Assembly (NCBI GenBank): GCA_964524645.1
Contig: CAZGEC010000001.1
Location: 179,994-243,993, forward strand
Reading direction: 5' to 3'
Length of the DNA: 64,000 bases
Source of the DNA: an uncultured Fibrobacteraceae bacterium
GTDB taxonomy: Bacteria > Krumholzibacteriota > Krumholzibacteriia > LZORAL124-64-63
Shown: in pieces, positions 15,416 to 50,202 of the stretch
Numbering within the stretch: position 1 is the first letter of the stretch
Layout: each line of letters starts with the position of its first letter
Position numbers and translations under genes: made by a program
Notes under the pieces: model-generated
The model's input: the letters and a program-made list of their open reading frames with translations, nothing else
Database searches by the model: none
Told to the model about the DNA's origin: nothing

Positions 15416-15603
15416 AAGCGTGCTCCCGGCGGGCCGGCATGGCTCCCGGTCCACCTGCGGGCCTTCCGGCGGAGGCCCCGGCTGCAATGTACCCTGTCCG
15501 GTACAGAATAGCAAAGCCGCGCCGAGCAACCACTTGACGTCGCCCCCGGCAAGCTCGATCCTGACGACGACGTGTCCGGCAGTCCCCCGGGGAGGCGAGC
15601 TTC

Positions 15604-30182: not shown

Positions 30183-30307
30183 GCTCTCCTCCTGGAATGC
30201 GGTGCGCGAGCCCGCGACCCTGCAGGTTCCGGCGACCGCGGCCCCGGTCGTCGTCAGGGGAGAACGTAAGCACAGCTGCCCCGGGTCGCATCCGGAACCG
30301 CGGATCT

Positions 30308-34415: not shown

Positions 34416-34646
34416 TCAGCTCAGGTCCCGGAACTGCTGCCACAGGCGGCTGAACCGGCTGGCGTAGACCATCTCGAACAGCTCCAGGCGATCGGGCAGA
34501 TTTTCCGCGCACCAGCGGCGCAGGTTGCGGATCTCGATCTCGATGTCGATGTCCGGGTAGTCGGTGGCGACGATCAAGAAGGCGATGCGATCGGCCCGCC
34601 GCTGCAGCACGCGGGCCGGTTCTTCGACGAGGTCGAGTCGGGTCAT
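34416..34646 (-). CDS. Small acidic hypothetical protein (76 aa)
   Basis: MTRLDLVEEPARVLQRRADRIAFLIVATDYPDIDIEIEIRNLRRWCAENLPDRLELFEMVYASRFSRLWQQFRDLS, with GAGAGGA RBS 8 nt upstream. The remainder of the 487-aa track ORF is antisense to the neighbouring gene. Confidence 0.4.
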   Translation of the reverse strand: MTRLDLVEEPARVLQRRADRIAFLIVATDYPDIDIEIEIRNLRRWCAENLPDRLELFEMVYASRFSRLWQQFRDLS

Positions 34647-34852
34647 CTCGTTGTCCTCTCGCGTGGCCGCTGGCGGCCGGCATGCAGCTCCGCGGCCATG
34701 TCGTTCCACAGGACAGCATAACCCGTGCGCGGGGCCGGGGCCAGGGATATGCAGGAGGATGGCGAGAATCGGCAGCGCCGGTCGGTTCCCCACCGGCCGG
34801 CGCCACATCGTCCTGAAGATTGCTCCCGGCGGGAGTGGGCCTGCGCCGGCGC

Positions 34853-35851
34853 TCAGTCCGCGTGCTCGATGACGATCCGCACGGTCCCGTCCAGCTCCGC
34901 CCGCAGGTCGGGTTTCTGCTCGGCCGCCGTCTCCACCTGCTCGCGCGGCAGGATCATGTTGGTGGCCAGGCAGCTGGCCACCGCGTCGGCGCGCTGCTCG
35001 GCCAGCGGCAGCGACTCGGCCACCACGACCACGCGGACCGGCGAATAGGGATGGCACCGGATCTCGTCGGTGGCGCGGATCACCCAGTCGCGACCGCGGT
35101 CGGTCAGCTTGGCTTGTTCCCGATTGAACAGCTCGCCGCCGGCCAGCTCCAGGCGGCGGTCGCCGTCCTGGCGGTAGTCCAGCGCCGGCAGGCGGAAGCT
35201 GACGCCGGCGTAGTTGTAGCTGTTGGTCCCCTTGTCGGTGATGCCGAAGACGTAGCTGTAGGGATAACCGACCTGGAGCATATCGCCGCGGTCGCCCCGG
35301 CCGTCCCAGGCCAGGCTGGCGGGCGGGGTTCCGCCGCCGGTGAAGGTCTTGAAGGGCGCGCCGCGGTAATCGGTGATGGTCAGCTGCCAGGACTGGACCT
35401 GGTGGCCCTCGGGATCCTGGGGGAAGAAGGTGACCATCGGGGCACGCGACATCGACCGCAGCCAGCAGTGCGGCGGCTGGTCGCTGGCCAGCTTCTCCAG
35501 GTTGTTCAGGTGGGGCTTCAGACCGCTCACCGGGCTGATGCCAAGGGCCTCCTCGTCCATCGCCGTGAAGAAGGAGTCCACCAGGGCGGCATCCAGATCG
35601 AAGCTGAAGGACCCCTTCTGGATCTGCTGCCGCACCTTGTTCTCGGCCTCGACGGTGATCTCGGGCAGGGCGGCTCCGCCCTCTCCCGCCTGGGTGAACT
35701 CCTGACCATCGGCCGGGCCGCCCGCGGCCGTCTGGTCCGCGGTCTGCGCCGCGGTGGAGCCGGCCAGCAGGACCAGCAGCGCCAGGATGTTCAGCAGGCC
35801 CGCCGCCCGCAGCCGGGCGTCCTCGGTGATTGCATGGCTCGAACTGCGCAT
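34853..35851 (-). CDS. Secreted protein with degenerate OmpA/MotB-like peptidoglycan-binding C-terminal domain (Pal-like position)
   Basis: Start M21 of the track ORF (signal peptide MRSSSHAITEDARLRAAGLLNILALLVLLAGSTAAQ). C-terminal ...FNREQAKLTDRGRDWV...RVVVVAESLPLAEQRADAVASCLATNMILP...RIVIEHAD resembles OmpA_C. Lies directly downstream of tonB. Confidence 0.5.
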   Translation of the reverse strand: MRSSSHAITEDARLRAAGLLNILALLVLLAGSTAAQTADQTAAGGPADGQEFTQAGEGGAALPEITVEAENKVRQQIQKGSFSFDLDAALVDSFFTAMDEEALGISPVSGLKPHLNNLEKLASDQPPHCWLRSMSRAPMVTFFPQDPEGHQVQSWQLTITDYRGAPFKTFTGGGTPPASLAWDGRGDRGDMLQVGYPYSYVFGITDKGTNSYNYAGVSFRLPALDYRQDGDRRLELAGGELFNREQAKLTDRGRDWVIRATDEIRCHPYSPVRVVVVAESLPLAEQRADAVASCLATNMILPREQVETAAEQKPDLRAELDGTVRIVIEHAD

Positions 35852-35879
35852 GGTCGTTCCTCGCTCCCCCGGGCCGCAC

Positions 35880-37133
35880 TCAATGCAGCCGGAAGACGAT
35901 GGTGATGACACCCCACTGCTCCACCGCCGCCTGTTCGGCGCGCAGAGGGGCGAAGCGGAACTGCTTGAGAGCCTCCATGGCGGAGCGGTTCAGGTCGCGG
36001 TGCACCGAGCTCTGCTCGAAGTACATGTTGTCCTTGACCCGGCCGTCGGCCAGCACGGTGAAGTGCACTGCCACGACCCCCTCCCAGCCATGCCGGCGGG
36101 CCTCGTCGGGGTACACCGGCGTCACGCTGGAGAGGATCTTGCGGCCCTGGATCTGACCGGAGATGGTCATGCTCACGCCCTGGCCGGAGGCCGGCACCTC
36201 GGCCACGGACTGCGGGGCGCTCTCCTGCTTCTGCTCCTGCTGGACGATGGTCCGGGTGTCGACGACCTCGGCCAGCCGGCCGCGCCGCCCCGCCAGGGCG
36301 CCGCCACCGCCCCCGCTGCCCGTCCCGTAGTCGAGGATCGTCTTGCGGGCGGAGCTCTCGCTGCCGCCGCCGCCGCTCGGGCCTCCCACGTCCACGACGC
36401 CGGAGCCGCCGGAGTCGTGCGTCGTGCGGGTCGCGGGCGCGAGGCCCGCCACCACGGCGGGCGCCGTTCCCTGAGCCGCGCGCAGGGCACCCCCGCCCAG
36501 GTTGGCCGGCACATCGGCCACGGTTCCCCGCGACCCGCCGCTCGGCGCGGCCACGGGCTTGTCGGTGATGATGATCTTGCCGCTGCGGCTCTGCAGGCTG
36601 GCGCTGGCCGGCCGGAAGGCATCGGCGGCCGGCGCACCGGCGGCCGGCGTCAGCCTGGCCGTCGCGTCCGCGACCTGCTGGGCGCGCAGCTCCCGCTGGT
36701 CCAGGACGGGCTGGACCGCGGCCTGGAAGTCCTTGGCTTCCAGCTTGCTGCTCGCCTCGAGCATCTGCGGCTGGGCCTTGGGCGCTATCTGCGGCGCCGC
36801 CACGTCCATCACGGCCGGCTTGGACTCCGGCCGCGGCGGCTCCGGCGATTTCGACTTCGGCTTGATGGCCGAATCGGTGCTGATCCCCCGCCCCGGTTCT
36901 TCCGCCAGCTGCGGCCGGAGGGGCATCTGCTTGAGCTTCACCTTGGCGGCGACGTCCTCGCCATAGGTGGCCTCGATGTACGAGATCTCGGTCAGCTCTC
37001 CCACCTTGTCCAGCAAACCCGTCTGACGGCCCACCTGGTAGAGGAGCAGCAGGAAGAGCAGCGCATGGAGAGCCGTGCTGGCCACCAGGCTGCCCCGCGT
37101 GGGGCGGCTGCGGTCCACGGCGGTCCTGATCAT
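35880..37133 (-). CDS. tonB: TonB-family energy transducer (second copy)
   Basis: N-terminal TM (LVASTALHALLFLLLLY), Pro/Ala/Gly-rich linker and a TonB_C domain (ILSSVTPVYPDEARRHGWEGVVAVHFTVLADGRVKD...AMEALKQFRFAPL). Start overlaps the exbD stop (ATGA). Confidence 0.75.
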   Translation of the reverse strand: MIRTAVDRSRPTRGSLVASTALHALLFLLLLYQVGRQTGLLDKVGELTEISYIEATYGEDVAAKVKLKQMPLRPQLAEEPGRGISTDSAIKPKSKSPEPPRPESKPAVMDVAAPQIAPKAQPQMLEASSKLEAKDFQAAVQPVLDQRELRAQQVADATARLTPAAGAPAADAFRPASASLQSRSGKIIITDKPVAAPSGGSRGTVADVPANLGGGALRAAQGTAPAVVAGLAPATRTTHDSGGSGVVDVGGPSGGGGSESSARKTILDYGTGSGGGGGALAGRRGRLAEVVDTRTIVQQEQKQESAPQSVAEVPASGQGVSMTISGQIQGRKILSSVTPVYPDEARRHGWEGVVAVHFTVLADGRVKDNMYFEQSSVHRDLNRSAMEALKQFRFAPLRAEQAAVEQWGVITIVFRLH

Positions 37134-37543
37134 TGCTCCCCCCCTTCGTCCTTCTGCCGGGTCGCCAGGGCGATGCGCGGCGCCTGGGCCGCTTCCACCT
37201 TGGCGATCAGCTGCTCGACGTCCCCGTAGATCAGGGCCTTGTCGGCCTTCACCACCGCCACGCCGTCCGGAGCCGCCTCGAACAGCTCCTTCAGGAAGGG
37301 CTGCAGCTCCTCGGGCTCCACCTGGAAGTCCCCCACGAAGATCTCGTGGTCCAGGGTGTAGGTGATCTCGATGTTGTCCGCGTCGTCCACCTCGCTGGCC
37401 CGTGCCTCCGGCAGATCGACGCCCTGCTCGTTCTCGCTCAGGAAGGGAGCGATCAGCATGAGGGTCAGCACGACCACCAGCGAGACGTTGATGATCGGTG
37501 ACACGTCGATCGTGTTCTCGTAGTTGAAGCCGTGCGGGATCAT
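37130..37543 (-). CDS. exbD: ExbD/TolR biopolymer transport protein (copy 2 of 2 in this cluster)
   Basis: Start M32 of the track ORF. MIPHGFNYENTIDVSPIINVSLVVVLTLMLIAPF. Confidence 0.8.
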   Translation of the reverse strand: MIPHGFNYENTIDVSPIINVSLVVVLTLMLIAPFLSENEQGVDLPEARASEVDDADNIEITYTLDHEIFVGDFQVEPEELQPFLKELFEAAPDGVAVVKADKALIYGDVEQLIAKVEAAQAPRIALATRQKDEGGEQ

Positions 37544-37974
37544 GGCCGCCCTCCCAGCTCGTTCAGGAGGGCCAGGGCCCCGGCGCCGCTCGCCTTGGCG
37601 ATGTCCAGGACCGTGACCACCTGGCCATAGAGGCACTGATCGACCGGCACGATGACGACCGTCTTGTCGTCACGGGCCGCCAGCCGAGCCCGCAGCTTCC
37701 CCTCCAGCTCGGCCAGGGTCACCGTCTCGCCCGCCAGGACGATCCGATCCGGCTCCACGCGGATGGTCGTGATCTCGTCCTTGGCCTTGACGGTGGGCGT
37801 GATCACCTGCTCCTCGGAGCTGGCCTCGGCGGAGTTCACCTGGATGCCGTTCCACATGATGGCCGGCATGGTGATGAGGAAGACGACGATGAGCGTCGTC
37901 GTCACGTCCGCCAGCGGCGTGACGTTGGCCCGGGTGATCGCGGCGGTGAAGCGTCCTTGCTTACTGATGGACAT
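37540..37974 (-). CDS. exbD: ExbD/TolR biopolymer transport protein (copy 1 of 2)
   Basis: MSISKQGRFTAAITRANVTPLADVTTTLIVVFLITMP. GGAGAGG RBS. Stop overlaps the next exbD start. Confidence 0.8.
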   Translation of the reverse strand: MSISKQGRFTAAITRANVTPLADVTTTLIVVFLITMPAIMWNGIQVNSAEASSEEQVITPTVKAKDEITTIRVEPDRIVLAGETVTLAELEGKLRARLAARDDKTVVIVPVDQCLYGQVVTVLDIAKASGAGALALLNELGGRP

Positions 37975-37995
37975 GTTGCTACCTCGCCTCTCCGC

Positions 37996-38721
37996 CTACT
38001 TGAGGATGTCGGCCAGGACCGGCTCCAGATCCATGTTGGTCTTGGCCGGCTTGCGCGACGCCGGAGCCTTGGCGGCGGTCTCCTGCGCCGGCGCGACCTT
38101 GCGGAGCAGGTTGGCGCGCAGGATGAAGAACTCCTCGCGCGCGTCCTCCATGTCCACCACGCGGCAGCGAATCTGCCGCACGAAGGTGTTGAAGAACACC
38201 GTGGCGATCACCGCGACGATGATGCCGGCGGCCGTGGTCATGAGGGCCTCGGAAACGCCCATGGCCACCACGGAGCTGCCCCCGGAACCGGTGCGGGCGA
38301 TATCCGCGAAGGCGCGGATGATCCCGACCACCGTGCCGAAGAGGCCGAGCAGGGGCGCGATGTTGCTCATGGTCCCCAGCAGGCTGAGGTGGCGCTCCAT
38401 CTCCACCTGCTCCACCTCGATGGCGGTGTTGATGCGCTGCTGCAGGTCCTCGCGGCTGCGGTGCATGTTGGTCACGGCCTGGGCCATGACCCGGGCGACC
38501 GCCCCCTTGCCTTTCCGGCAGTACTCCAGCGCGCCCTTGGCATTGTTCGCGTTCACCAGCGGGCCCAGCTCCTTCATGAAGCGCCCGACGTTCTGGCGGG
38601 TGGCGCGGAAGTAGAAGGTCCGCTCGAGGGCGAAGCCGACCGTGATGATGGAGCAGACGAGCAGCACCACCATGGTCGGCGAGGCCAGGAACAGATCGAT
38701 GAGCGACAGTTCGCCAAACAT
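37996..38721 (-). CDS. exbB: MotA/TolQ/ExbB proton-channel protein (second copy)
   Basis: 241 aa, 3 TM, conserved ...APLLGLFGTVVGIIRAF...EALMTTAAGIIVAVIATVFFN. AGGAGAGG RBS. Confidence 0.85.
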   Translation of the reverse strand: MFGELSLIDLFLASPTMVVLLVCSIITVGFALERTFYFRATRQNVGRFMKELGPLVNANNAKGALEYCRKGKGAVARVMAQAVTNMHRSREDLQQRINTAIEVEQVEMERHLSLLGTMSNIAPLLGLFGTVVGIIRAFADIARTGSGGSSVVAMGVSEALMTTAAGIIVAVIATVFFNTFVRQIRCRVVDMEDAREEFFILRANLLRKVAPAQETAAKAPASRKPAKTNMDLEPVLADILK

Positions 38722-38751
38722 TTCCCTCTCCTTACTCTCCCGTTGTGCCGG

Positions 38752-41700
38752 CTAGCCGCCGGCGACCTCCATTTCCCTCAGGGCGGCGATCCGGCCTTGG
38801 GCCATCTCGGTCCATTCGGGTTTCCCGTGGGCATCGACGATCTTTTGGTAGGCGGTGATGGCCCCCGCCCAGTCCCCCCGCTTCTCCAGGATCTGGCCGA
38901 TCTGGGCCAGGCTGGCGATCCGGAAGGGATCGACGGCGGAACCGGCATCCGCCTTGCGGTAGCTGGCCAGGGCCTGCTCGAGGTCTCCGGCCTTCTCCCA
39001 GCACTCACCCTGGCGGAAGCGGATCTCCGCCGGGTTGGTCCCGTCCTGGGCCAGCGCCTTCTCGTAGGCGTCGACCGCATGGGGATAATCCCCGAGCTCC
39101 TCCTGATAAAGCGCACCGACCTGCTGCCAGAGGCCCTTGGCGTTCTCGTGGTTCGGGTACTGGGCCAGGAAGCGCTCGTAGCCGCCGACCGCGGCCGTCC
39201 AGTCCTCCAGCTCCTGGTAGCAGATGGCGGCGTTGTAGGCCGCCAGCGCCGCGTACTCCCCTTCCGGGAAGAGGTCCATCATCGCCTCGTAGGCGGCGGC
39301 GGACTCGGTGAAGCGCTCCAGCTTGAAGAGCACCGTGGCGGCGCGGAAGTGCGCCAGCTCCGCCAGGTCGTTCTCGGGATGGGTGGTCGTGAAGTTGCGG
39401 TACCCGGCCAGAGCCGGCTCCAGCTCCTCCTGCCGGTAGTAGCTCTCCGCCAGGTAGAACAGGGCGCCGGGACCGCTCTCGCTGTCCGGGTAGTCCAGGG
39501 TCACCTTCTCGAAGGCCTTGGCGGCCGTCGTGTAGTCGCCGGCCGCAAAGGCCTCCTGGCCCTTGTTCCAGTAGACGTCCGCGGCCAGGGCGCTGTCGGG
39601 ATGGCGATCCAGGTACTGCGTCATGTCCTTGCCGCTGCGGTAGTAGCAGGACTGGATCCCCAGCTCGGCGTCCTCGACGCGCTCGTCGTCCGGATAGGTC
39701 TCGGCGAAGGAGGAGAAGGCCGCGATCGCCGCCTCGTCCTCGCCCAGGTTGTATGCGCAGCTGGCGATGCCGAAGGCGGCATCGGCAACGTGCGCGCCCT
39801 GCGGGTAGCTGCTCTGCAAGCGCCGGTAGCTGGTCCGGGCCTCGGCGAAGCGCGCCAGTCCGAACTGGGTGTCGGCGATGCGATAGAGCGCTTCCGCGGC
39901 CTCGGCCGACTGGGGAAAGCGGGCCAGCAGGTCGGACCAGGTCTGCAAGGCCTGCTCGTAGTACTGGAGGCGGTAGTAGCATGCGCCGAGGTTCTGGAGC
40001 GCCGCCGGGGCCTCGGGGCTGTTCGGGTGCTTCTCCAGAAAGCCCGTGAACTGCTGCAGGGCCTCCTGGTAGTTGTGCTGGTTGAAGTGGATGCTGCCGA
40101 CCGCCAGAGCGTTGTTGCCCTCCTCGCTGTCCGCGTTGCCGAGCGCGAGCAGGAACTTCTGCTGCTCCGCCAGGGCCAGCTCGTAATCTCCGCACCGGCT
40201 GAGGCTGGCCACCAGCCCCTGCAAGGCGGGCGCGGCCACGTTGCTGCGCGGGTAGCCCGTCAGCACCAGCCGGTACATGTCACCGGCCTGCTGGTACAGG
40301 CCCTGGGCGTAGTAGGCCTCGCCGAGATAGTAGTAGGTCCGGGCCCGCCAGTAGCTCGGCGTGGGCAGCAGGCGGCTGGCGATGTAGTTGTAGTTGGTGA
40401 TCACGCGATCGAGCTGACCCTGTTCCGTGTAGGCCAGCGTCGAGAGGAAGAGAGCGCGCTCGGCGACGTCGGTGTTGACGTTCTTGTCCAGCACGTTCTG
40501 ATAGGCCATGACGGCCTCGTTGTACTCGCCGAGCTTGTAGTGGCTGAAGCCCTTCAGCACGTGCACGCGGGCGGCCAGGGGATCGCCGGGGAATCGCTTC
40601 AGGAACTCCTGGGCCATGAGGACGGCCTGGCCGTAGTTGCCCTCGGAGACGTAGGCATAGCAGATCTTGTGCAGGGCAGCGCTGGCCACGTGACTCTCGC
40701 CGAACCCGTGCACGACCTCGGTGTACGCGAAGATGGCCTCGGCGGTGCGCTCCAGCTGCATGTAGCAATCGCCGATCAGGTACTGGGCGTAGGCGCAGAC
40801 CATGTCGCCGGCGAAGCTCTTGCAGATCTCCTCCAGCTGACGGATGCTCTCGTCGAAACGCCCCTCGCTGTAGGTCACGCACGCCATCTTGTAGCGCGCG
40901 TTGGGCACGAACGGGCTCTCCGGGAAGTCGTCGATGAAGGAGCGGTAGCTGCGCACGGCCACGGCGTTCTGACCGCTGCGATAGAAGGCCTCGGCGATGC
41001 TGAAGGCGACGTCGTCCGCCAGGGGGCTGTCGGGATACTGCCGCAGCACCTGCTTGTAGCGCTGGATGGCGAGGATGTACTTGCCCGTGTCCTCGTAGCA
41101 GCGTCCCAGGTAGTAGAGCCCGCGGTCGCTCGGCACCTCCTCGAAGTAGGCCGTTGCGTCCTCGTAGCGCTGCTCCTGGTAGGCGAACAGGCCGAGGGCG
41201 AACTTGACCTGGGGCAGTTCCTTGTAGCCGGGGCGCGACTCCAGCAGCTCGCGATAGGCCGCGCGCAGCTTCAACCAGTTGCCCTGCACGATGTAGGTCA
41301 GGCCGCTCTCGTAGAGCGCCTCGGCCAGCAGGAAGGTGTCGTCGTACTTGTCCACCAGCCTGTCGTAGGAAGCGATCGCTGCGTCGAAATCACCCAGGTT
41401 GAAGTGGCACTCGCCCCGGCGCAGGAGCACGCTGGCCGCGAGGTAGTCGTCCCGCCCCTTGTACTTTTCCACGCGGTCGTACTCCTGCAGAGCCGCCTTG
41501 TAGTCGCCCACGGCGAAGTAGCACTCGCCCAGCATGTACTGAGCCCGGGCCGCGCGGTTGCTCTTGTGATAGGTCTGCACGAAGAGACGGTACTGCTGCA
41601 TGGCGGCCGATTTGTCCACGCCGGCGGCGTAGGCCGCACCGGCCGCTTGCCACAGAGCGTCCTCGGTGGGCACCTCGCTATCCTTGGCGAGGACCGGGCC

Positions 41701-41775
41701 GGTCCAGGTCAGGCTCAAGCCCAGCAGCAAGAGCAGGACTGCGGCGCCGCGGCGTCCGCTGGCTGCGGATCTCAT
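38752..41775 (-). CDS. Large TPR-repeat protein (about 20+ TPR units), secreted
   Basis: 1007 aa with a signal peptide (AAVLLLLLGLSLTWTGPVLA), then tandem 34-aa TPR units (A..Y.LG.CYF..G.Y..A...Y). 4-nt overlap with the upstream PorV-like gene. Confidence 0.8.
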   Translation of the reverse strand: MRSAASGRRGAAVLLLLLGLSLTWTGPVLAKDSEVPTEDALWQAAGAAYAAGVDKSAAMQQYRLFVQTYHKSNRAARAQYMLGECYFAVGDYKAALQEYDRVEKYKGRDDYLAASVLLRRGECHFNLGDFDAAIASYDRLVDKYDDTFLLAEALYESGLTYIVQGNWLKLRAAYRELLESRPGYKELPQVKFALGLFAYQEQRYEDATAYFEEVPSDRGLYYLGRCYEDTGKYILAIQRYKQVLRQYPDSPLADDVAFSIAEAFYRSGQNAVAVRSYRSFIDDFPESPFVPNARYKMACVTYSEGRFDESIRQLEEICKSFAGDMVCAYAQYLIGDCYMQLERTAEAIFAYTEVVHGFGESHVASAALHKICYAYVSEGNYGQAVLMAQEFLKRFPGDPLAARVHVLKGFSHYKLGEYNEAVMAYQNVLDKNVNTDVAERALFLSTLAYTEQGQLDRVITNYNYIASRLLPTPSYWRARTYYYLGEAYYAQGLYQQAGDMYRLVLTGYPRSNVAAPALQGLVASLSRCGDYELALAEQQKFLLALGNADSEEGNNALAVGSIHFNQHNYQEALQQFTGFLEKHPNSPEAPAALQNLGACYYRLQYYEQALQTWSDLLARFPQSAEAAEALYRIADTQFGLARFAEARTSYRRLQSSYPQGAHVADAAFGIASCAYNLGEDEAAIAAFSSFAETYPDDERVEDAELGIQSCYYRSGKDMTQYLDRHPDSALAADVYWNKGQEAFAAGDYTTAAKAFEKVTLDYPDSESGPGALFYLAESYYRQEELEPALAGYRNFTTTHPENDLAELAHFRAATVLFKLERFTESAAAYEAMMDLFPEGEYAALAAYNAAICYQELEDWTAAVGGYERFLAQYPNHENAKGLWQQVGALYQEELGDYPHAVDAYEKALAQDGTNPAEIRFRQGECWEKAGDLEQALASYRKADAGSAVDPFRIASLAQIGQILEKRGDWAGAITAYQKIVDAHGKPEWTEMAQGRIAALREMEVAGG

Positions 41776-43100
41776 CGCTGATCCCCCTCCGTAGAGTTGT
41801 CCGAACCGCCGTTGATCTCCACCCGGATGGGGACCCGGGTGCGGTCACGGAAGCCCAGCACCTCGACGCTGGTCTCGTAGTCCCATTCCTGGCCGAGGTC
41901 GTCCAGGATGATCACCTGGGCCGCATAGTCGCCGTCCGCCACCAGGCGGCCCTGGTCGTCGTCGCCGTTCCAGGCGATGCCCTCGGGCGGCTCGCCATTC
42001 CCCTGCAGGCGCCGCACGACGTTGCCGTCGCCGTCGCGGATCAGAAGCTGCCAGGATTCCACGTGGCCGCGGACGGCCGTGTCGATGGTGAAGTTCACCG
42101 AGCGCTCCGCGCCCGAGGGGCTGAACAGCTCGCGGTCGCGGTGCATCTTGACGCCGTACGGGACACCGAAACGGAAGGTGGCGCTCACGACGTTGGACGC
42201 TCCCAGCTCGTGGTCGATGAAGGCGTAGTCCAGCTGCCAGTTCTCCCAGCGCACGCCGAGGCCGGCGCTGAACTGCTCCTTGCCGGTGTCGTAGCCGCCG
42301 CGCACGCCGATGGCGCGCGTGGGCCAGACCTCGAGACCGGTGTGGAAGCTGGCGTCCATGTACTCGGTCTTGACCAGATCGGCCAGGGCCAGCAATCGGT
42401 TGTTGAAGAAGCGCAGGGCCAATCCTCCGCGCACGCTGCGCACCAGCTTCTCCGCGTCCTCCTCCAGCGTGATCTCCGGCGCCACCAGGTTCTGCACTGC
42501 CGCTCCCAGGCTGAGGTTGCGGTGCGGGCGCAGGTAGACGCCAACGTCGACGCCTGTGCCGCTGCCCTTGCTGCCGCCCACGTTCTGCGAGACCGACTTG
42601 AGGTTCAGTCCCCAGGCGAAACGGCCGCTGCCACGCGCGAAGCTGAGACAGAAGGCCCCCTCCCGCTCGCTGAAGGACTCGTCCAGATCCTCGAAGATCG
42701 TGGCGCGCTCGAACTCGCCGCTCGAGACCAGCGAGCCGCTCAGGGCGAAGGTCCCCCAGTGCTCGGTGGGCAACCCCAGCGCGAAGAAGGTGTAGCGAGT
42801 GTCCTCGAAGAGGATGGCCTCCATGCCCGTCAGCTCCATGGTGCGCAACTGGGACAGGCCCGCCGGATTCCAGTAAGCCGTGGCCACGTCGTCGGCCAGC
42901 CCCGCCACGGCGTTGCCCAGGCCCAGGCTGCGCGCGCTGGAGCCGTAGCGCAGGTAGCTGCCGGGGATGCCGGCGTCGTCGGCGGCCCTAACCGGTCCGG
43001 CTGCGAGCAAGAAGGCCAGGCCGCAGACCGGCAGGAGCGGGATCGCGCGGGGACGGCGGCCGCCGCGCGGGATGCGAGGTGCTGTGCGTCGTTGCCTCAT
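41772..43100 (-). CDS. PorV/PorQ- (or PorP/SprF-) like outer-membrane beta-barrel with extra C-terminal FlgD-Ig-like domain
   Basis: 442 aa with a signal peptide. The N-terminal motif ARSLGLGNAVAGLADDVATAYWNPAGLSQL matches the OMP at 10509..11774 and the T9SS shuttle-protein family signature. The C-terminal ~100 aa (GIAWNGDDDQGRLVADGDYAAQVIILD) resembles a FlgD-Ig fold. It lies immediately downstream of the giant CTD-bearing protein. Confidence 0.65.
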   Translation of the reverse strand: MRQRRTAPRIPRGGRRPRAIPLLPVCGLAFLLAAGPVRAADDAGIPGSYLRYGSSARSLGLGNAVAGLADDVATAYWNPAGLSQLRTMELTGMEAILFEDTRYTFFALGLPTEHWGTFALSGSLVSSGEFERATIFEDLDESFSEREGAFCLSFARGSGRFAWGLNLKSVSQNVGGSKGSGTGVDVGVYLRPHRNLSLGAAVQNLVAPEITLEEDAEKLVRSVRGGLALRFFNNRLLALADLVKTEYMDASFHTGLEVWPTRAIGVRGGYDTGKEQFSAGLGVRWENWQLDYAFIDHELGASNVVSATFRFGVPYGVKMHRDRELFSPSGAERSVNFTIDTAVRGHVESWQLLIRDGDGNVVRRLQGNGEPPEGIAWNGDDDQGRLVADGDYAAQVIILDDLGQEWDYETSVEVLGFRDRTRVPIRVEINGGSDNSTEGDQR

Positions 43101-43109
43101 GCTGTTCCC

Positions 43110-46100
43110 CTACTTGATCACGGCGATCTTGCGCCGCAGATCGATGCCGTTGCCATGGATCCGACAGATGTAGCCGCCGTTGGCCACGACCCTGTCATTG
43201 CCGTTGCGACCGTCCCAGACGAACTGCGTCAGCTCCCCGGCCTGCGCGTACTCCTGGTGGCTGTGGACCACGTCGCCGTACAGGTCGTAGATCGTCACCG
43301 TCACGGTGCCGCTCCGGGGAGCCCGGAAAAGGATCAGCGTGTTCTCGTGGCCGGCCCGGAACGGGTTGGGCCGGTTGGTGATGTCCCGATCCGTGTCCAG
43401 GTCCCTGCCGGTGTGCAGGGTCACGGTCCGCACCGATTCGGCAACGCCCGAGACCTCCTCCGCGTAGAAGCGCAGGCGGTGATCACCCGGCGTGTCCAGA
43501 CCGAGCTGCGCGAGGCTGAAGTCTCCGGTGTAGACCTGGCCGGGATACGGCGGATCCACCTGGTCCACGTCGAAGAAGATGGCCTGGATGCCCTGGGATT
43601 CCTCCGTCGTGGCGGTCAGACTGATCCGGGTGCTGGAGGTGACGTAGTAGCCATCGCCGAAGGGCGGGGCCTCCGGATCGAAGCGGACGACCGTCCGGGG
43701 CGGTCCGATGACATCGACGAGGAGCTGCACCGAGCTGACCAGGCTCGCCGCGGCCTCCAGCAGGATGTCCGTGCTGCCGTACTGGGTCACGGTGAGGCTC
43801 ACCATGGCCAGGCCGTCGCTGGCGGTCTGGGTGCTGTACGTGGTCTGGTGGGCGGCGCCCAGCACCCCGTCCCCCGCCAGGACCCTGAACTGGACGGGCT
43901 CCCCGATGATGGCGTTGCCCGAGGCATCCGTGGCCCGTGCCAGCGCGGTCACGATCTGACCGGGGCGCACGGGCGTGGCGAGACGCTGGCCCGGCAGGCG
44001 CTCCGCCCACAGCTCGAGACTGCTGACCGCGGCGGGCAGGACCGTGATCACGTCGCTGAAAGCCAGCTCACCGCTGTCGTCCGAGACCCGCAGGTAGATG
44101 GTCTCGGCGCGATCGTAGCTCTGGTGGTCGAAGGTCTTGACGCCCAGCGCGGTCGTCCCGACGGTATCGGCCAGCACTCCCATGGGCCGCAGGCTGAGAT
44201 CCGGTCGCGGCGAGTTGCCGCTGAGGGCCCGCAGCAGGAAGGTGCGGTCGTCGTTGGTCACCAGCTGTCCGGTCACGATGTCGACGCGCCGGACGCTCAT
44301 GGACCAGGACTCTCCCGCCACCACCGTGTCCGGCACGTCCACGGCGTAGCGCACGCCCACCGGCACCACGGTCAGGACCTCGCTGAAGGCCTCCCGGCCG
44401 CGGGCGTCGCTCACCCTGATGACGATCTGCTCGCTGGTGGCGTAGTACTGGCCGCCGATGATGGCCTCTCCCGCCACCAGAGTGGCGCCGCCGATGCCCA
44501 GCGCCGAGCTTGCCGGGGTGCGGTCGGGGTGCAGGGCCGTCATGGTGAAGGCGTTGCCGGCGTTGATCCGCTCCTCCGTCTCCGGATTCACCAGGCGGAT
44601 GGTGAGGGTGAAGGTGGCCGGCGGTCCCGCCACGACCTGGGGTGGTGTCGGCAGGATGATGCGGTACTCGGCCTCATTCACCGGGATGTCCACGCGTCCG
44701 GTGTTGACCGTGGGATGCTGGGGATCGGTGGCGAAGAGGGCCACCAGACCGGGATCGCCCAGCACGATCTCGATATCCCGGCTGCCGTTGATGAACGGCG
44801 CGTCCTGATCCACGGGATCGACGATGTCGAGGGCCCCGCCCGAGCTGGACAGGTGGATCGTTCCGCTGTTCAGCGAGTGCATCAGGTTGAAGTACTGATC
44901 CACGGCCCGCACGGTGACCGTGAACGGAACCTCGGCCTGCTGGGTCAGCACCTCGCCGATCTTGCCGGTGCCGGTGACGGCGCCGGGCTGGGGCGTCTCG
45001 CCCGGAGCCACGATCTGGATGCGCTTGAACCCGTCGGCCAACATGCGGCAGGTATTGCTGATGCCGACCACACCGACGGTATCGCTGACCTCGATGAAGA
45101 TGTCCTCGGCCTTGGTGTAGGCCTGAGCGATGTTGCGCAGTCCGCTCACCAGCAGCCCCTGACGGACCTCGAGCTGTCCGGTCCCGACCAGACCGGTGGT
45201 GGCGCTCATGACCTCGATGGCAAAGAGGCGATCCTGGGTGGTGACCCGTTCGCCGGTGTTGCTGTCGATCAGCTCGATCCGCAGGGGGAAGGTCGCCGGC
45301 GGACCGACCGTCGCACTGTCGGGGATGGTCACAGCGTAGTAGAGGCCACCTGTGTCCATGTGGATCACGCTGCTGATGGCCTCGCGTCCGAAGTCGTCGG
45401 TGACCCGGATGACGATGTCCTCGACGGTGCTGTAGCTCTCATGGTTGATCACGCTCACGCCGCCCACCAGCTGCGACTGGGTGATGCCCAAGGTGCCGTT
45501 AGCGGCGCCCTGGTTGGGCAGGAGCGGCGTCAGGGTGAAGCGGTTCATCGCCGTGGGCACGACGTTCCCTGTGACCGGATCGATGAGCTTCACCGTCACC
45601 TGGAAGCCGGGTACGGGACCGGTCGAGGCGGTCGCCGGCACCGTGATCTCGTAGATGAACGGCGGATCCACGGGAATGGGCACGGACTGGGAAGGCCGCG
45701 AGATGTCCGCCTCATCGAAGGCCGAGACGGTCACGATGCCCTCGTCCGTCAGGAAGCCGTTGAAGGTCCGCCGCCCGTTCACGAAAGGCACGTAGTTTTC
45801 CGCCGGGTTCCCCGGCAGCGAGAACGAGTTGTCGCTGGCGACCAGCCGCACCACGCCGGAGTTGGTGGTGTCGGCCAGGTTCCAGTACTGGTCCACGGCT
45901 CGCACCGTGATGGGGAACGGTTCGCCGGAGCGCTGCGAGACGGCCGTGCCGGACTTGCCGGTCGTGGCGTAGATCGGGATGCCGGCCTCGACAACCTCGC
46001 CCGGCGCCACGATCTGCAGCTTCTTGTAGCCGTCCGAGACCAGGCCGAAGATGGGACTGGAACCCGCAAGACCGGTGGAGTCCGTCACCGTGACGTAGAC

Positions 46101-49100
46101 GTTGCCGGCCCGGGTGTAGCTCTGCTGGAAGTTGATGGTGCCGCGGTCTAGACGCTGCGACGTGACACCGACCGCCCCGAGCGCCGTACCGGTGACGACG
46201 TCGCGCACGTCCACCGTGATCCGACGGTCGTCGTCGATGACGGTCTGGGTGTCCACGTCCCGCAGGCGCACGTTCACGGGGAAGGTGGCGGGCGGACCGA
46301 CCCGCGGTGTCGGGGTCGTCGTCACCGCAACCACATACTCCATGCCGTTGCTCTGCATCTGGATGGTCGAGCTGTAGCTGAGACGTCCTGAGGCGTCGCC
46401 GATCCGCAGGACAATATCCTCGACAGTGTCGTAGGCCTGGTTGTTGATGGTCACCGAGCCCGCATTGAGCTGCGCCTGGGTAACGAACGGCGCGCTGCTG
46501 GCCGGTTCGAGGTTGCTGAGCAGGGCCGAGATCGTAACCCAGTTGTTGGCGGCTGGCAGCGGCGCACCATTGCTGTCCACCAGAGCAATGGTCATCGAGA
46601 AGGTGCTGGGCGGCCCCACGAAGGCCGTGGGCGGGGTGGTGATCTGGTACATCGCCCCCTGTTCCACCTCGACCGTCACCGCCTGACCCACAATATCAGT
46701 GTGGTCCAGGGCCGAGGCCGCCAGGGTGACGAAGCCGGTGCTGGTCAGAAACAGCGGGAGGATGATCTCGCCGTTGACCAGCGATTGGTCGTTGTTGAGC
46801 GGATTCGTCGGCGTGATGGAGCCGTCGTCGCTGGCCAGGTGGATGTGCTCGCTGCTGTTGTCCACCAGGTTCCAGAATTGGTCCACCGAACGCACATGCA
46901 CGTCGAACTCGAGGCTGGCGGTCTGGGTCAGCGGCGCCCCTACCTTGCCGTCCGCCTCGGGTCCGCCGGGCAGCGGCGTCTCACCCGGCAGCAGGATCAT
47001 CAGGCGATCGACGGATCCCGGGGTCACCAGGATGGTGCTGGTATCCGTCTTGGCAGGCGCGATCAGGTCTCTGACGGACAGCTGCTGCGTCTGCGCCGCC
47101 TTGAAGTAGAGATCGAAGGTGCCCGTCCCGTTCGGATCCAGCTGCTGATCGTTGGCCGAGATCATCTGGAAGTAACTGCTGCTCCCGAAGTGAACCGTGG
47201 GCTGAGCCGCGATGGGGTTCCATTCGCTGTCGGTGGCGATGACCGTCGCCACCACGGGGTTTCCAGCCACCACCGGCAACGGCGTCCCCACTTTCCCGGG
47301 CGCGATGCCCGGTGTGTGGGTCTCGCCCGGCAGCAGAAGGACCAGGTCTTCGTAGGTCCCTGCGAAGACCGTAAATGCATTGCTGCTGTCCGTCTTGGCG
47401 AACAGGTCCTCCCGCACGAACAGGCGCACGTTCTGACCCGCCCTGGTGATCCGGATCGAACCGCGCCAGACGCCGTGGTAGGTGCCGGTTCCGAAGCCGT
47501 CGCCCAGGCTGACCCGGACGGGCGTGAGCACGTTGGTGCCGTGGTTGACGTACAGCGAGACGCTGTCGGCGTAGTCCGCGATGTGGTTGTTGAAGATGTC
47601 GCGCGCCACGATGGTCACGTTCGGCAGGGAGGAGCCGGCCTGGTGGTCGGGGATCGGCGCGAGCACGTCGCCCGGGGTCGGGTTCGTGCGGTTGTTGATG
47701 CCGATGTCGAAGTGGTCGATGGCGCCGGCCTTCAGGGGAATCGTCGTGTAGGCGAACACGGCACTGCCGTTGTCGTCGACGCGGATCGTCTGCTGGTTGG
47801 GATCGGCCAGGGTGATCAGGGTCACCGAGAAATCGGTGGTGTTGTCGGCCAGCTGCTGCGGATTGGCCGGCAGGACGGCGGCTGCGTCGCTGCTGCTGAA
47901 GTCGACGCTCAGGGGCAGCCGCGGGTCCACGTCGGTGATGGGATTCCAGTAGGAGTCCGTGGCATACACCCGCACCTGGAACGGTACGCCGGCGTCCTGG
48001 GTGCTGGGATCGCCGATCTTGCCGTCGTCCTCGATGCTGTCGAAGATGCCAGGCTCCAGCTGCTCGCCCGGCGCCGCCACCACCATGCGCGCGAAGGGGG
48101 CGGGCGAAACGTACACCGCGCTCGAGTTGTTGGGGTTCACGCCGCTGGCGTCGGCCGTCAGGGTCTGGTTCAAGTAGGTGCGGAAGATCACCCGCACGTC
48201 CACGGGATTGTTGAGGCTGATCAGGTTGGTGGGGTAGTCCGGCAGCTCGAAGTAGCCGGTGCCGCAGCTGATGGTGACGTTGCGCTGCCCCGAGACGATG
48301 TTGCCGTAGCGGTCCACGGGACGGACGGTCACCGGGTCGACGATCTGGCCGGCCACGACGCTGTTGGGCACCCCCATGTTGCCGCTGAAGTTCGGATCGT
48401 TGAGCCCCGGGACCCAGGTCTCGCCGGGGAAGGTCAGGAGGATGCGGTTGAGGGGGCCCGAGTTGACCTGGAAGTGGCCGGAAACGCCCACGACGTCGGC
48501 GTTGCTGTCCACGATGACCCGGGCGCTGAAGGCGCGCTTGGTCACCTGCACGAGGGCATCCAGCTGGCCGTTGACGAAGGTGGCGTTGTTGGTGATGAGG
48601 TAATCCTCGGACTCGTCCGACGTGCCCAGCCGGGCCCGCAGGGTCACCTGGCCGTTGTAGGGGAAGGGGTTGTTGTTGCTGTCCTGCGCGCGCACGCGGA
48701 GCTGGAAGGGAATGGTGGTCACCTGGACGTCGAGGGTGTCCCAGACGGAGTAGTCGAAGACGAAGTGATCGAGACCTTCCGGGTTGACGATGACGTTGCT
48801 CTCGTTGCTGGAGCTGATGGGCCCGGAGGCCGAGACCGTGACCCGGCGCAGGCCGGACTGGATGAGCGTGACGGCCTCGTCCAGCTCGGCGTTGCTGGCC
48901 ATGGCGCCGCCCGCCGGCAGCGAGACGCCCGGGCTGGGATCGTCGCTGCTCCAGCTCAGGGTCGGATAGGGCCCGGATTCCACCGGGTTCCAGTGCTGGT
49001 CGGTGGCGTACACGTCCACGCCGTTGAAGCTGTTGCCGGAGATCTGGGGCTGGGGCACGCCGGTCTTACCGGGGCTGACGCCGGGGTTCAGGCTCTCGCC

Positions 49101-49871
49101 CGGCAGCAGCAGCACCACGGTGGCCAGCGGACCGGGCCGCAGGGGCGAGACGACCACGGAGCCGGTCGCCGGTCCAGCCTGGCCGGGATAGGTAATGGTG
49201 TTCCTGGCCGTCAGGGTGTTCTCGCGCGTCACCGGATTCGTGCCCCAGAAGATCACGGGCAGAGTGGCCTGGCCCATGGCGAAGGAGGTGCCGGGCACGG
49301 TCACGGTGGGTCCGCCGGAGAAATCACCGACGAGGGCGTCGAGGATCACGTCGTCGCCGAAGTTGGCCACGGTCTGGCTCTGGTAGTCCGTGGCCACCAG
49401 CGTGACGTTCACCGCCTGGTCCACGAACTTGTCGCCGGCCGGAACGGTCAACAGGAAATGATCCACGGGATTGTAGCAGTCGATGAGGACCTCGGCATGC
49501 GGCACCGAGGCGTCGTCGGCGTCGCGGACCCGCAACCGCACCGGCTGTCCCGCGGCCAGGAACGTGATGCCGTCGAACTGCCGCTCGCCGTTGTGCAGGT
49601 AGTCGTGCGGCGGCAGATTCGCCGGCACGTCGGGCGAGTATAGCTCGGCATTGATGAAGTCCGCCGTCAGGTCCGTCGTGCCATCCGCATTGACCGCGCG
49701 CACCCTCGCGCTGAAGGCGACCTGAACCGTGACCGCCGGCCGCCCGGCCACGATGTGCGGGTTGACCACCGTGATTTCCAGATGGTCGAAGGCCAGCGCG
49801 GTCGCCGGCAGGCAGCCGATCAGCGCGAGAAAACAGGCGATTCTGAAGATGAGATTCAAATGTCGCAGCAT
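43110..49871 (-). CDS. Giant (about 2250 aa) cell-surface multi-repeat protein with C-terminal FlgD-Ig/T9SS-type sorting domain (adhesin-like)
   Basis: ORF 43110..49985. Start chosen at MLRHLNLIFRIACFLALIGCLPATALA. There are at least 7 copies of a ~100-aa 'LLPGE..PG...GK.G.P..Q.AG.PF.V.V.A.D..WN' module and at least 6 copies of a second Ig-like ~100-aa module. The terminal 87 aa (RPNPFRAGHENTLILF...FVWDGRNGNDRVVANGGYICRIHGNGIDLRRKIAVIK) form the CTD. Confidence 0.8.
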   Translation of the reverse strand: MLRHLNLIFRIACFLALIGCLPATALAFDHLEITVVNPHIVAGRPAVTVQVAFSARVRAVNADGTTDLTADFINAELYSPDVPANLPPHDYLHNGERQFDGITFLAAGQPVRLRVRDADDASVPHAEVLIDCYNPVDHFLLTVPAGDKFVDQAVNVTLVATDYQSQTVANFGDDVILDALVGDFSGGPTVTVPGTSFAMGQATLPVIFWGTNPVTRENTLTARNTITYPGQAGPATGSVVVSPLRPGPLATVVLLLPGESLNPGVSPGKTGVPQPQISGNSFNGVDVYATDQHWNPVESGPYPTLSWSSDDPSPGVSLPAGGAMASNAELDEAVTLIQSGLRRVTVSASGPISSSNESNVIVNPEGLDHFVFDYSVWDTLDVQVTTIPFQLRVRAQDSNNNPFPYNGQVTLRARLGTSDESEDYLITNNATFVNGQLDALVQVTKRAFSARVIVDSNADVVGVSGHFQVNSGPLNRILLTFPGETWVPGLNDPNFSGNMGVPNSVVAGQIVDPVTVRPVDRYGNIVSGQRNVTISCGTGYFELPDYPTNLISLNNPVDVRVIFRTYLNQTLTADASGVNPNNSSAVYVSPAPFARMVVAAPGEQLEPGIFDSIEDDGKIGDPSTQDAGVPFQVRVYATDSYWNPITDVDPRLPLSVDFSSSDAAAVLPANPQQLADNTTDFSVTLITLADPNQQTIRVDDNGSAVFAYTTIPLKAGAIDHFDIGINNRTNPTPGDVLAPIPDHQAGSSLPNVTIVARDIFNNHIADYADSVSLYVNHGTNVLTPVRVSLGDGFGTGTYHGVWRGSIRITRAGQNVRLFVREDLFAKTDSSNAFTVFAGTYEDLVLLLPGETHTPGIAPGKVGTPLPVVAGNPVVATVIATDSEWNPIAAQPTVHFGSSSYFQMISANDQQLDPNGTGTFDLYFKAAQTQQLSVRDLIAPAKTDTSTILVTPGSVDRLMILLPGETPLPGGPEADGKVGAPLTQTASLEFDVHVRSVDQFWNLVDNSSEHIHLASDDGSITPTNPLNNDQSLVNGEIILPLFLTSTGFVTLAASALDHTDIVGQAVTVEVEQGAMYQITTPPTAFVGPPSTFSMTIALVDSNGAPLPAANNWVTISALLSNLEPASSAPFVTQAQLNAGSVTINNQAYDTVEDIVLRIGDASGRLSYSSTIQMQSNGMEYVVAVTTTPTPRVGPPATFPVNVRLRDVDTQTVIDDDRRITVDVRDVVTGTALGAVGVTSQRLDRGTINFQQSYTRAGNVYVTVTDSTGLAGSSPIFGLVSDGYKKLQIVAPGEVVEAGIPIYATTGKSGTAVSQRSGEPFPITVRAVDQYWNLADTTNSGVVRLVASDNSFSLPGNPAENYVPFVNGRRTFNGFLTDEGIVTVSAFDEADISRPSQSVPIPVDPPFIYEITVPATASTGPVPGFQVTVKLIDPVTGNVVPTAMNRFTLTPLLPNQGAANGTLGITQSQLVGGVSVINHESYSTVEDIVIRVTDDFGREAISSVIHMDTGGLYYAVTIPDSATVGPPATFPLRIELIDSNTGERVTTQDRLFAIEVMSATTGLVGTGQLEVRQGLLVSGLRNIAQAYTKAEDIFIEVSDTVGVVGISNTCRMLADGFKRIQIVAPGETPQPGAVTGTGKIGEVLTQQAEVPFTVTVRAVDQYFNLMHSLNSGTIHLSSSGGALDIVDPVDQDAPFINGSRDIEIVLGDPGLVALFATDPQHPTVNTGRVDIPVNEAEYRIILPTPPQVVAGPPATFTLTIRLVNPETEERINAGNAFTMTALHPDRTPASSALGIGGATLVAGEAIIGGQYYATSEQIVIRVSDARGREAFSEVLTVVPVGVRYAVDVPDTVVAGESWSMSVRRVDIVTGQLVTNDDRTFLLRALSGNSPRPDLSLRPMGVLADTVGTTALGVKTFDHQSYDRAETIYLRVSDDSGELAFSDVITVLPAAVSSLELWAERLPGQRLATPVRPGQIVTALARATDASGNAIIGEPVQFRVLAGDGVLGAAHQTTYSTQTASDGLAMVSLTVTQYGSTDILLEAAASLVSSVQLLVDVIGPPRTVVRFDPEAPPFGDGYYVTSSTRISLTATTEESQGIQAIFFDVDQVDPPYPGQVYTGDFSLAQLGLDTPGDHRLRFYAEEVSGVAESVRTVTLHTGRDLDTDRDITNRPNPFRAGHENTLILFRAPRSGTVTVTIYDLYGDVVHSHQEYAQAGELTQFVWDGRNGNDRVVANGGYICRIHGNGIDLRRKIAVIK
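44015..49118 (-). repeat. Intragenic tandem-domain repeat region of the giant surface protein (coordinates approximate)
   Basis: Protein-level periodicity of ~100-110 aa across residues ~290-1990: two alternating module types, diverged at DNA level. Confidence 0.5.
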
Positions 49872-50202
49872 GGGTACCCGCGCCTCGTCGTGGTGATTTG
49901 CACCCTTCTCCGGGGCGGCTTCGCAATATGCGACGTCGGCTGGCTCGCCCGGAGGACTTTCCGTGGTTCGGAAGGCGGGCCGCAAGGCGCATGCCAGGGG
50001 GTGGTGCGGTCGGTGATTTCCAGTGAGGGGGCGGAATACCCGGTCGTGGGGCAGCGAGATGCGAGCGCCTCAGGTATCCTGCCACGCTCGTTCCCGGCCA
50101 CCGGATGAGCAGGGCGAAGACCGGCGGCCACCGGAGGCGGGCAGCCAGCCATCCCGTTTTCGTGATCGATTATGACAAGAACATTCAATATTTAGAACTT
50201 GG

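Follow-up and report, generated by a model that had tools for sequence, protein, structure and literature searches.

The stretch of DNA analysed here, hereafter the window, is 64,000 nucleotides (nt) long (positions 179,994 to 243,993 of contig CAZGEC010000001.1, assembly GCA_964524645.1), comes from an uncultured member of the Krumholzibacteriota and has a GC content of about 68%. The listing of its open reading frames (ORFs) contains eight minus-strand genes, tightly packed in one string at 34853-49871. They encode, in order, a giant secreted protein with immunoglobulin (Ig)-like repeats, a PorV-family outer-membrane barrel, a protein of tetratricopeptide repeats (TPRs), an ExbB-like protein, two ExbD paralogues, a TonB-family protein and a further secreted protein, here called the last protein (Table 1). 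Because several distant and mostly uncultured phyla share the gene order, this set of genes, hereafter the module, looks like an undescribed cell-envelope machine and not like a chance neighbourhood, judging by gene content and order.

A sequence-only reading of this DNA had proposed an eight-gene minus-strand string, joined mostly by 4-nt overlaps or by gaps of 30 nt or less. All of its ORFs are in place, and third-position GC backs the reading frames of all eight genes, the last of which overlaps a longer, spurious ORF. The packing is likewise confirmed, as the seven measured junctions comprise three 4-nt overlaps and gaps of 9-30 nt. GGAGG-like sites precede most of the genes. Promoter and terminator scans gave a signal no better than that of shuffled sequence. 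Three small genes downstream of the operon (34416-34742, 33595-34059 and 33137-33700) were considered as module members and rejected because they lack counterparts in the other loci. At the opposite end, the 467-nt gap between the giant gene and a divergent cytochrome gene holds a short AT-rich stretch at window positions ~50090-50160 (GATAATGATCAACCAAGTTCTAAATATTGAATGTTCTTGTCATAATCGATC). This stretch, conspicuous in a 68% GC genome, is likely the shared promoter region of the giant and cytochrome genes; a sigma-70 scan found no match in it.

Table 1. Genes of the operon in the window, features within them, and the junction of each gene with the next one in the string (aa, amino acids)
Feature	Coordinates	Strand	Description	Junction with next gene
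Giant secreted Ig-repeat protein	43110..49871	(-)	2253 aa from ATG 49871; signal peptide MLRHLNL...ATALA, cleavage before FDH; many Ig-like repeats	9-nt gap
C-terminal domain (CTD) of giant protein	43113..43382	(-)	~90 aa; pattern NPF..G..T.I........V.V.IYDL.G..V.....WDG.N..G..V.NGGY.......RKI.V.K.	
PorV/FadL-family outer-membrane barrel	41772..43100	(-)	442 aa; signal peptide; N-terminal helical segment aa ~45-88; 14 beta-strands aa 89-310 (nt ~42171-42836)	4-nt overlap
FlgD-Ig-like domain of barrel	41859..42152	(-)	aa 317-414; PF13860 30.8 bits vs cut-off 27, aa 334-396; 7-strand sandwich in model	
Secreted all-TPR protein	38752..41775	(-)	1007 aa; YbgF/CpoB- and BamD-type repeats; TPR_6 262.6 bits	30-nt gap
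ExbB/TolQ-family proton-channel subunit	37996..38721	(-)	241 aa; PF01618 104.5 bits	21-nt gap
ExbD1	37540..37974	(-)	144 aa; PF02472 66.3 bits	4-nt overlap
ExbD2	37130..37543	(-)	137 aa from ATG 37543; PF02472 65.9 bits	4-nt overlap
TonB/TolA-family transducer	35880..37133	(-)	417 aa; N-terminal transmembrane helix; TonB_C aa 339-416 (nt 35886-36119)	28-nt gap
Secreted adaptor-like last protein	34853..35851	(-)	332 aa; signal peptide; conserved, predicted-disordered N-region	
TonB-box-like motif AALPEITVEAEN	35639..35674	(-)	last protein aa 60-71, ~25 residues past predicted signal-peptide cleavage site	
FlgD-Ig-like domain of last protein	35141-35434	(-)	aa ~140-237	
OmpA/MotB-fold domain of last protein	34868-35140	(-)	aa ~238-328	

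Recurrence of the eight genes in distant phyla

Related loci were collected from long contigs that carry homologues of the barrel, with Pfam gene tables covering about 10 kb around each. All of these loci come from metagenome-assembled genomes (MAGs), whose taxon labels were assigned by the depositors. The eight genes, in an identical order and set between unrelated flanks, were found in two further Krumholzibacteriota loci (L001 and L002). The order was also kept in MAGs labelled Goldbacteria (L003), Calditrichaeota (L004) and Elusimicrobia (L005), and in the unlabelled locus L092, which is of the Goldbacteria type by its shared flanks. A Firestonebacteria MAG (L006) carries a rearranged set that reads ExbD, giant protein, barrel, ExbD, TonB, last protein. 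Conservation of the gene neighbourhood in relatives, to which the sequence-only reading had pointed as a check, thus extends across phyla. Its Bacteroidota framing did not survive: the source of the window belongs, by the source names on close homologues, to Candidatus Krumholzibacteriota, and the module is also present in MAGs labelled Elusimicrobia, Goldbacteria and Firestonebacteria. Loci L009 and L011 were not counted as a further phylum, their barrels being 60-63% identical to that of the window and their contigs having a GC content of 66-69%. Protein-cluster look-ups found no cultured carrier of the module.

In BLASTP comparisons, each window protein best matched its positional counterpart, with 22-37% identity between phyla. 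Within the phylum, identity was 59-71% for most of the eight proteins and lower for TonB and for the truncated ExbD2 of L002. The GC content of the loci spans 0.32-0.70, so the distribution does not reflect recent transfer. Judged by this comparison, the module is an old, conserved functional unit. That its eight proteins work together is our best-supported statement, and it is genetic in nature.

The giant protein, which the sequence-only reading had taken for cargo, shares in this conservation and does not behave as ordinary cargo. It is 66-67% identical to its L001 and L002 counterparts over 2243 aa, a level equal to that of the machinery genes (BLASTP), and its length in Krumholzibacteriota is 2247, 2253 or 2254 aa. 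Residues 1284-2253 align with the entire 1058-aa Elusimicrobia protein, and the CTD is recognisably kept in every module lineage. Because sequence and length are conserved like those of the machinery and the CTD is kept in all phyla, these alignments indicate that the giant protein is a fixed component of the module and no arbitrary or passing cargo.

The pairing of a CTD protein with a barrel reaches beyond the module. At E ≤ 0.001, an exhaustive search of representative sequences gave 11,149 proteins related to the barrel. Among the best 150, many have a length of 410-450 aa and are matched over most of it, barrel and Ig domain included. Named relatives belong to Firestonebacteria, Desantisbacteria, FCPU426, Elusimicrobiota, Calditrichaeota and Goldbacteria. 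A genome scan for the PorV family was keyed on the generic motif YWNPAGL; the at least 80 loci that it gave are mostly generic PorV-family loci and no census of the module. The ORFs in the 80 listed loci were annotated with hidden Markov models built from the module. CTD-ending ORFs numbered 54, of which 31 lie directly upstream of a barrel gene on the same strand, six directly downstream and 17 elsewhere. The rule of a CTD protein followed by its dedicated barrel, as put forward in the sequence-only reading, is therefore borne out in other phyla. Such pairs also occur without Ton genes (L007, L008 and L089-L091), in L008 twice in succession. On this distribution, the CTD protein and the PorV-family barrel form a widespread cassette, to which one particular subfamily adds the Ton half.

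Among the pairs without Ton genes, L007, L089 and L091 share a common context: a Big_1/Invasin_D3 protein of ~560-600 aa with a CTD, the barrel, a HAMP protein of ~190 aa, a protein of ~530-550 aa with a weak OmpA match, and a very large protein. L090 has the same Big_1/Invasin_D3 context and breaks off just past the barrel.

The claimed lack of a TonB-dependent receptor nearby held as far as it could be followed. Neither the annotated part of the window's ORFs nor the Pfam gene tables within ~10 kb of the module loci gave a match to Plug or TonB_dep_Rec. SprA, PorU and PorZ were found neither in the window nor in the module loci, about 10 kb being covered around each; next to L001, a partial C25-like gene reached 26 bits against the PorU cut-off of 420. 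Homologues of the barrel carry the NCBI name 'PorV/PorQ family protein', and those of the other module proteins are named 'hypothetical'. We found no published description of the module in the full-text literature.

The proteins and their domains

ATG 49871 is the most probable start of the giant gene, because it gives a signal peptide and a length matching that of the orthologues (2247 and 2254 aa). It is preferred over the TTG at 49985, 114 nt upstream, from which the sequence-only reading had started; the description of a multi-repeat protein of ~2.25k aa stands. The CTD passed the Pfam FlgD_ig model (about 29.1 bits vs a cut-off of 27) and also matches the CTD portions of the PorU and M6i models. 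A Big_1-like domain at residues 1974-2048 stayed below threshold (27.0 vs 34.9), and a PDB sequence search with the giant protein gave no significant match. The mature N-terminus, FDHLEITVVNP, was tried as a TonB box and rejected, since this position in other phyla simply corresponds to the opening strand of an Ig repeat.

The barrel passed the NCBIfam model PorV_fam NF033709 (119.6 bits vs 90), as did its Elusimicrobia orthologue (119.7). It missed all the narrower models, namely PorV NF033710 (28.8 vs 250), PorQ NF033711 (61.9 vs 220) and PorP/SprF TIGR03519 (17.0 vs 90.55). The profile searches thus did not find the protein unrelated to the PorV/PorP families, an outcome that would have counted against the sequence-only reading. 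In an AlphaFold model built from 48 sequences (pLDDT 82.6), a helical segment at the N-terminus is followed by 14 beta-strands and an Ig domain of seven strands. The fold is that of a 14-strand FadL-like barrel, in which the helical segment may, by the model, act as a plug. The extra C-terminal FlgD-Ig-like domain that had been noted on the barrel was recovered above the PF13860 cut-off (Table 1). The last protein's Ig domain is a clear homologue of it (hhalign probability 99%, E 5e-18), and the giant CTD a more distant one (93.6%, E 2e-7). Since an even number of strands (14) leaves both ends of the barrel on the periplasmic side, we infer from the model that this Ig domain is periplasmic.

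The TPR protein, the ExbB, the two ExbD paralogues and the TonB with its TonB_C domain were all as the sequence-only reading had described them. TPRs run throughout the 1007-aa protein, the model tol_pal_ybgF matches it in 11 stretches, and its positional orthologues in L001-L005 and L092 are 1000-1024 aa long. ExbB, both ExbD proteins and TonB exceed the Pfam cut-offs. The best NCBIfam matches of ExbB and the two ExbD proteins are tolQ and tolR (108.8, 43.6 and 56.2 bits). ExbB nevertheless missed the equivalog cut-offs of both TolQ (108.8 vs 221) and ExbB (90.8 vs 206.2), and both ExbD proteins missed that of TolR (43.6 and 56.2 vs 127.3).

ExbD1 and ExbD2 form separate orthologous lines in BLASTP comparisons across the loci. 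The transmembrane Asp is normally essential in ExbD/TolR proteins. In ExbD1 (..TPLADV..) it is invariant in all six loci aligned (the window and L001-L005). In ExbD2 it is lost in four of the six, being replaced by Asn in the three Krumholzibacteriota and by Gly in Calditrichaeota, and is retained in Goldbacteria and Elusimicrobia. That ExbD1 always carries the Asp and ExbD2 does not suggests a heteromeric stator axle in which the proton is carried obligatorily by ExbD1 alone.

The TonB-family protein joins its transmembrane helix to its TonB_C domain (PF03544, 58.7 bits; TIGR01352, 62.5 bits) by a linker of ~290 residues rich in Ala, Gly, Ser and Pro. The SxxxH motif is present in the transmembrane helix in five of six loci (the window, L001, L003, L004 and L006).

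The last protein had been read as a secreted protein with a degenerate OmpA-like domain. The analysis gave it a signal peptide, an OmpA/MotB fold and, in addition, the FlgD-Ig-like domain. The protein has no lipobox, and a PDB sequence search with its profile gave no significant match. Near its mature N-terminus, in a region that is otherwise divergent and predicted to be disordered, lies a short motif of the form [DE]-[IMV]-x-[VI]-x-[AG], present in six lineages. In the window it reads AALPEITVEAEN and is nearly invariant in 32 Krumholzibacteriota sequences, with L62, P63, E64, V67, E68, A69 and N71 invariant. Its counterparts in orthologues are ALPEMVVEAEN and, in other phyla, GQEIVVKGQ, VLDDVVVQAQ, NLEDMEVTGQ and KLEDITITGE. 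It lies 10-30 residues past the signal peptide in four of five lineages and ~75 residues further in in the Elusimicrobia orthologue. We take the motif to be comparable to the TonB boxes DTLVVTA (BtuB) and ETVIVEG (FhuE) and to the TolA-binding N-terminus of TolB.

A possible trans-envelope machine and its alternatives

Our preferred reading, to which we give a probability of roughly 45%, is that the products of the eight genes make up a single trans-envelope machine, which is powered by the proton-motive force and serves the barrel and the giant protein. In such a machine, ExbB and an ExbD1/ExbD2 heterodimer would form a Ton/Tol-type stator in the inner membrane, with the invariant protonatable Asp supplied by ExbD1. 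The stator would energise the long TonB-family protein, whose C-terminal domain could capture the last protein by beta-strand pairing with the TonB-box-like motif in its disordered N-terminal part. The last protein would lie under the outer membrane, its Ig domain pairing with the homologous periplasmic Ig domain of the barrel, and the 1007-aa TPR protein would be the scaffold of this periplasmic assembly. The barrel would be the dedicated outer-membrane partner of the giant protein encoded just upstream and would recognise its CTD, as PorV and PorP/SprF-type barrels do with type IX secretion system (T9SS) cargo. The work of the motor might then be spent on the giant protein, in crossing or reaching the outer membrane, in being held there or in being pulled.

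The evidence that we count for this machine is the conserved gene order, the positional orthology, the conserved giant protein, the rule that a CTD protein precedes its barrel, the Ig domain common to three proteins, the motif and fold of the last protein, the SxxxH of TonB and the lack of a receptor in the module loci. That the Ton motor energises export through the barrel is something we purely infer. We hold it to be unlikely that the module is a self-contained TonB-powered pathway that exports or anchors FlgD-Ig-type CTD proteins via a PorV-family barrel, independently of the T9SS (SprA, PorKLMN), in several phyla including some outside the Fibrobacterota-Chlorobi-Bacteroidota (FCB) group (Elusimicrobia, Goldbacteria and Firestonebacteria). 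Such a pathway would be a relative or forerunner of the T9SS running on a Ton/Tol motor.

Several observations weigh against the proposed machine. The giant CTD, which the sequence-only reading had called both FlgD-Ig and T9SS type A, missed the type A model TIGR04183 (18.2 vs 23) and so kept only the first of these assignments; the Elusimicrobia orthologue just missed it as well (22.5 vs 23). The conservation of the giant protein is unusually high and atypical for surface adhesins, and a periplasmic or structural role would fit it too. A FadL-type barrel with an internal plug offers no obvious conduit for a protein. The Firestonebacteria locus has neither the TPR protein nor ExbB nearby. The TonB-box-like assignment concerns a motif of ~9 residues judged by eye. 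The Asp/Arg residues by which OmpA-like domains bind peptidoglycan are not conserved across phyla in the last protein, so that anchoring to peptidoglycan is doubtful even though the fold is present. Finally, the taxon labels come from the MAG records, and two loci titled Fibrobacteraceae (L009 and L011) look like Krumholzibacteriota.

Much of the operon could also be read as a Tol-Pal-like system for envelope integrity or cell division. ExbB and ExbD would then correspond to TolQR, the TonB-family protein to TolA, the last protein to the TolA box of TolB plus the OmpA-like domain of Pal, and the TPR protein to CpoB, with the barrel and the giant protein acting as tethers without a role in secretion. 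We regard this as improbable. The stator proteins and the TPR protein do have tolQ, tolR and ybgF matches (see above), but all the Tol equivalog cut-offs are widely missed, and the TPR protein is four times as long as CpoB. The inner-membrane stator and the long, periplasm-spanning transducer are shared with the TolQ-TolR-TolA-TolB-Pal-CpoB system, and the transducer is TolA-sized with a long low-complexity linker, yet it ends in TonB_C instead of the TolA C-terminal domain. The last protein resembles Pal in its OmpA/MotB fold and TolB in its disordered N-terminal strand motif. However, it has no lipobox and no conserved peptidoglycan-binding residues, and is thus no Pal lipoprotein with OmpA_C, while the TolB beta-propeller is found in no locus. 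The conservation of the giant protein would suit a structural housekeeping role. The constant inclusion of a CTD protein and a PorV-type barrel, additions to the Tol-Pal set that exist as pairs on their own elsewhere, is left unexplained, and the same window holds a separate TolA/TolQ/TolR-like set at 13227-15529.

Some features of the module are those of a Ton system. MotA_ExbB, ExbD and TonB_C are passed, TonB has the SxxxH motif, and the presumed partner has a strand-like motif near its mature N-terminus. Unlike in Ton systems, however, that partner is a soluble Ig plus OmpA-fold protein and the module has no 22-strand receptor with a plug domain. The module also has two different ExbD proteins, one of them without the Asp in some lineages, and a TonB of ~420 aa.

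A surface-motility or adhesion-actuating machine, in which the Ton-type motor would move or tension a giant Ig-repeat fibre held by the barrel, is a more doubtful alternative. By analogy, it would resemble Myxococcus Agl-Glt or Flavobacterium SprB with GldLM. The parts parallel those of the Agl-Glt/Nfs core, a conserved cluster that combines one TolQ-like protein and a pair of TolR-like ones with a TonB-like transducer, large TPR proteins and outer-membrane barrels. The single ExbB and the two distinct ExbD proteins fit this pattern, and a giant repeat protein with a dedicated barrel recalls SprB with SprF. The models of the Glt proteins are nevertheless missed (GltE, 30 bits vs 225; AgmX/PglI tail, 18.5 vs 40). 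The TonB-family protein has no FHA domain match, there is a single TPR protein and not three, and the Glt core includes neither a PorV-family barrel nor a CTD protein. No motility phenotype is known in these uncultured lineages, and the genome paper on Caldithrix abyssi reports genes for flagella and type IV pili but none for gliding of the Bacteroidetes type (PMC5317091). The Agl-Glt core is itself described as a conserved ancestral complex whose function outside the Myxococcales is unknown (Luciano et al. 2011, PMC3169522).

Similar kinds of parts are described for the FSU_2396-2404 cluster of Fibrobacter succinogenes S85 (OmpA, two TPR proteins, ExbB, two ExbD, TonB and a membrane protein), which we compared by description only. 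The envelope is rich in the proteins of this cluster, whose abundance is higher on cellulose (PMC6851124, PMC4619616). According to Arntzen et al., as cited in these two papers, they occur together in a multiprotein complex. The TPR proteins (84 and 147 kDa) and the OmpA protein (56 kDa) are closer to the Glt-core type, and no PorV-like or giant CTD gene is reported. A link between this cluster and the module is not established, the reported protein sizes being a poor fit in this comparison by description.

Very improbable, finally, is an ordinary T9SS cargo with its PorV/PorP-type shuttle beside an unrelated nutrient Ton system: the CTD and PorV_fam assignments would allow it, a general sorting route must exist because the CTD proteins at 50339-52999 and 16601-19489 have no adjoining barrel, and Krumholzibacteriota belong to the FCB group, where a T9SS may occur (PMC11285876), but a chance neighbourhood is effectively excluded by the synteny, with the eight-gene order kept at 22-37% identity between unrelated flanks and in non-FCB phyla, by translationally coupled junctions, by an Ig domain that the barrel shares with the final gene of the Ton half, and by the lack of a TonB-dependent receptor in any module locus. 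According to the same review, T9SS genes are absent outside FCB phyla (PMC11285876). The module also differs from the T9SS of Bacteroidota, where PorV, or PorP/SprF-type barrels in the case of type-B CTD cargo, serve secretion (SprA-PorV translocon, 6h3i). There the energiser is PorL/PorM, here it would be ExbB/ExbD/TonB. The module barrel has an extra periplasmic Ig domain and misses the PorV, PorQ and PorP cut-offs, no SprA, PorK/N or PorU lies in the module locus, and the module also occurs in phyla outside FCB.

The known jobs of Ton/Tol-type stators are nutrient import, envelope maintenance and myxobacterial gliding. Here such a stator is hard-wired across phyla to a PorV-type barrel and a T9SS-like sorting domain, and, if the coupling is functional, this would be a new job for TonB-family transducers. 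Were the proposed machine real, it would connect Ton/Tol systems with type IX secretion in mechanism and perhaps also in evolution, the T9SS having parts that are alike (stator, TPR protein, OmpA-fold protein, PorV and CTD). It would also help to account for the handling of CTD proteins in phyla from which a T9SS is reportedly absent, and would give a role to hundreds of 'hypothetical' proteins of uncultured lineages. The two-gene cassette of a CTD protein followed by a PorV-family barrel is a testable candidate for surface display in many phyla.

Other genes in the window

The second Tol/Ton-like set occupies 9657-15529 on the minus strand, its TolQ/TolR/TolA-like genes lying ~20 kb from the operon. 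It comprises a TolA/TonB-like gene (14339-15529), a TolQ/ExbB-like gene (13637-14305), a single ExbD/TolR-like ORF (13227-13766), a 518-aa protein without a family and a 276-aa TPR protein (9657-10487). Its barrel (10509-11774, minus strand) has a BamG-family FadL/PorV fold, with 107.7 bits against a cut-off of 250. This set may be the organism's Tol-Pal or BAM-associated cluster, and its presence argues that the module is not the cell's only Tol-type system.

Two further proteins in the window end in FlgD-Ig-type domains, and neither has an adjoining PorV-family barrel. The 886-aa protein divergent from the giant gene (50339-52999, plus strand) has a Big_7 domain and a CTD at 44.4 bits, together with multihaem cytochrome matches that are cytochrome c554-like and, below threshold, MtrC/MtrF-like (28.9 vs 30). 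A 962-aa FG-GAP repeat protein (16601-19489, minus strand) ends in a near-threshold FlgD_ig match (25.7 vs 27), which makes it another candidate for the same sorting signal.

Envelope and quality-control genes with no evident link to the module include an AsmA-family protein of ~1000 aa (5709-8711) and a LonB/LonC-like AAA protease (27741-30641), both on the minus strand. An open frame of ~1014 aa at 963-4007 (minus strand) has coding-like third-position GC and no Pfam or NCBIfam match. At 60572-63163 (minus strand), a cytochrome c oxidase subunit I, matched by the CtaD model at aa 325-828, is preceded in its open frame by ~320 further residues; these could reflect a fusion or an upstream gene that the ORF call joined to it.

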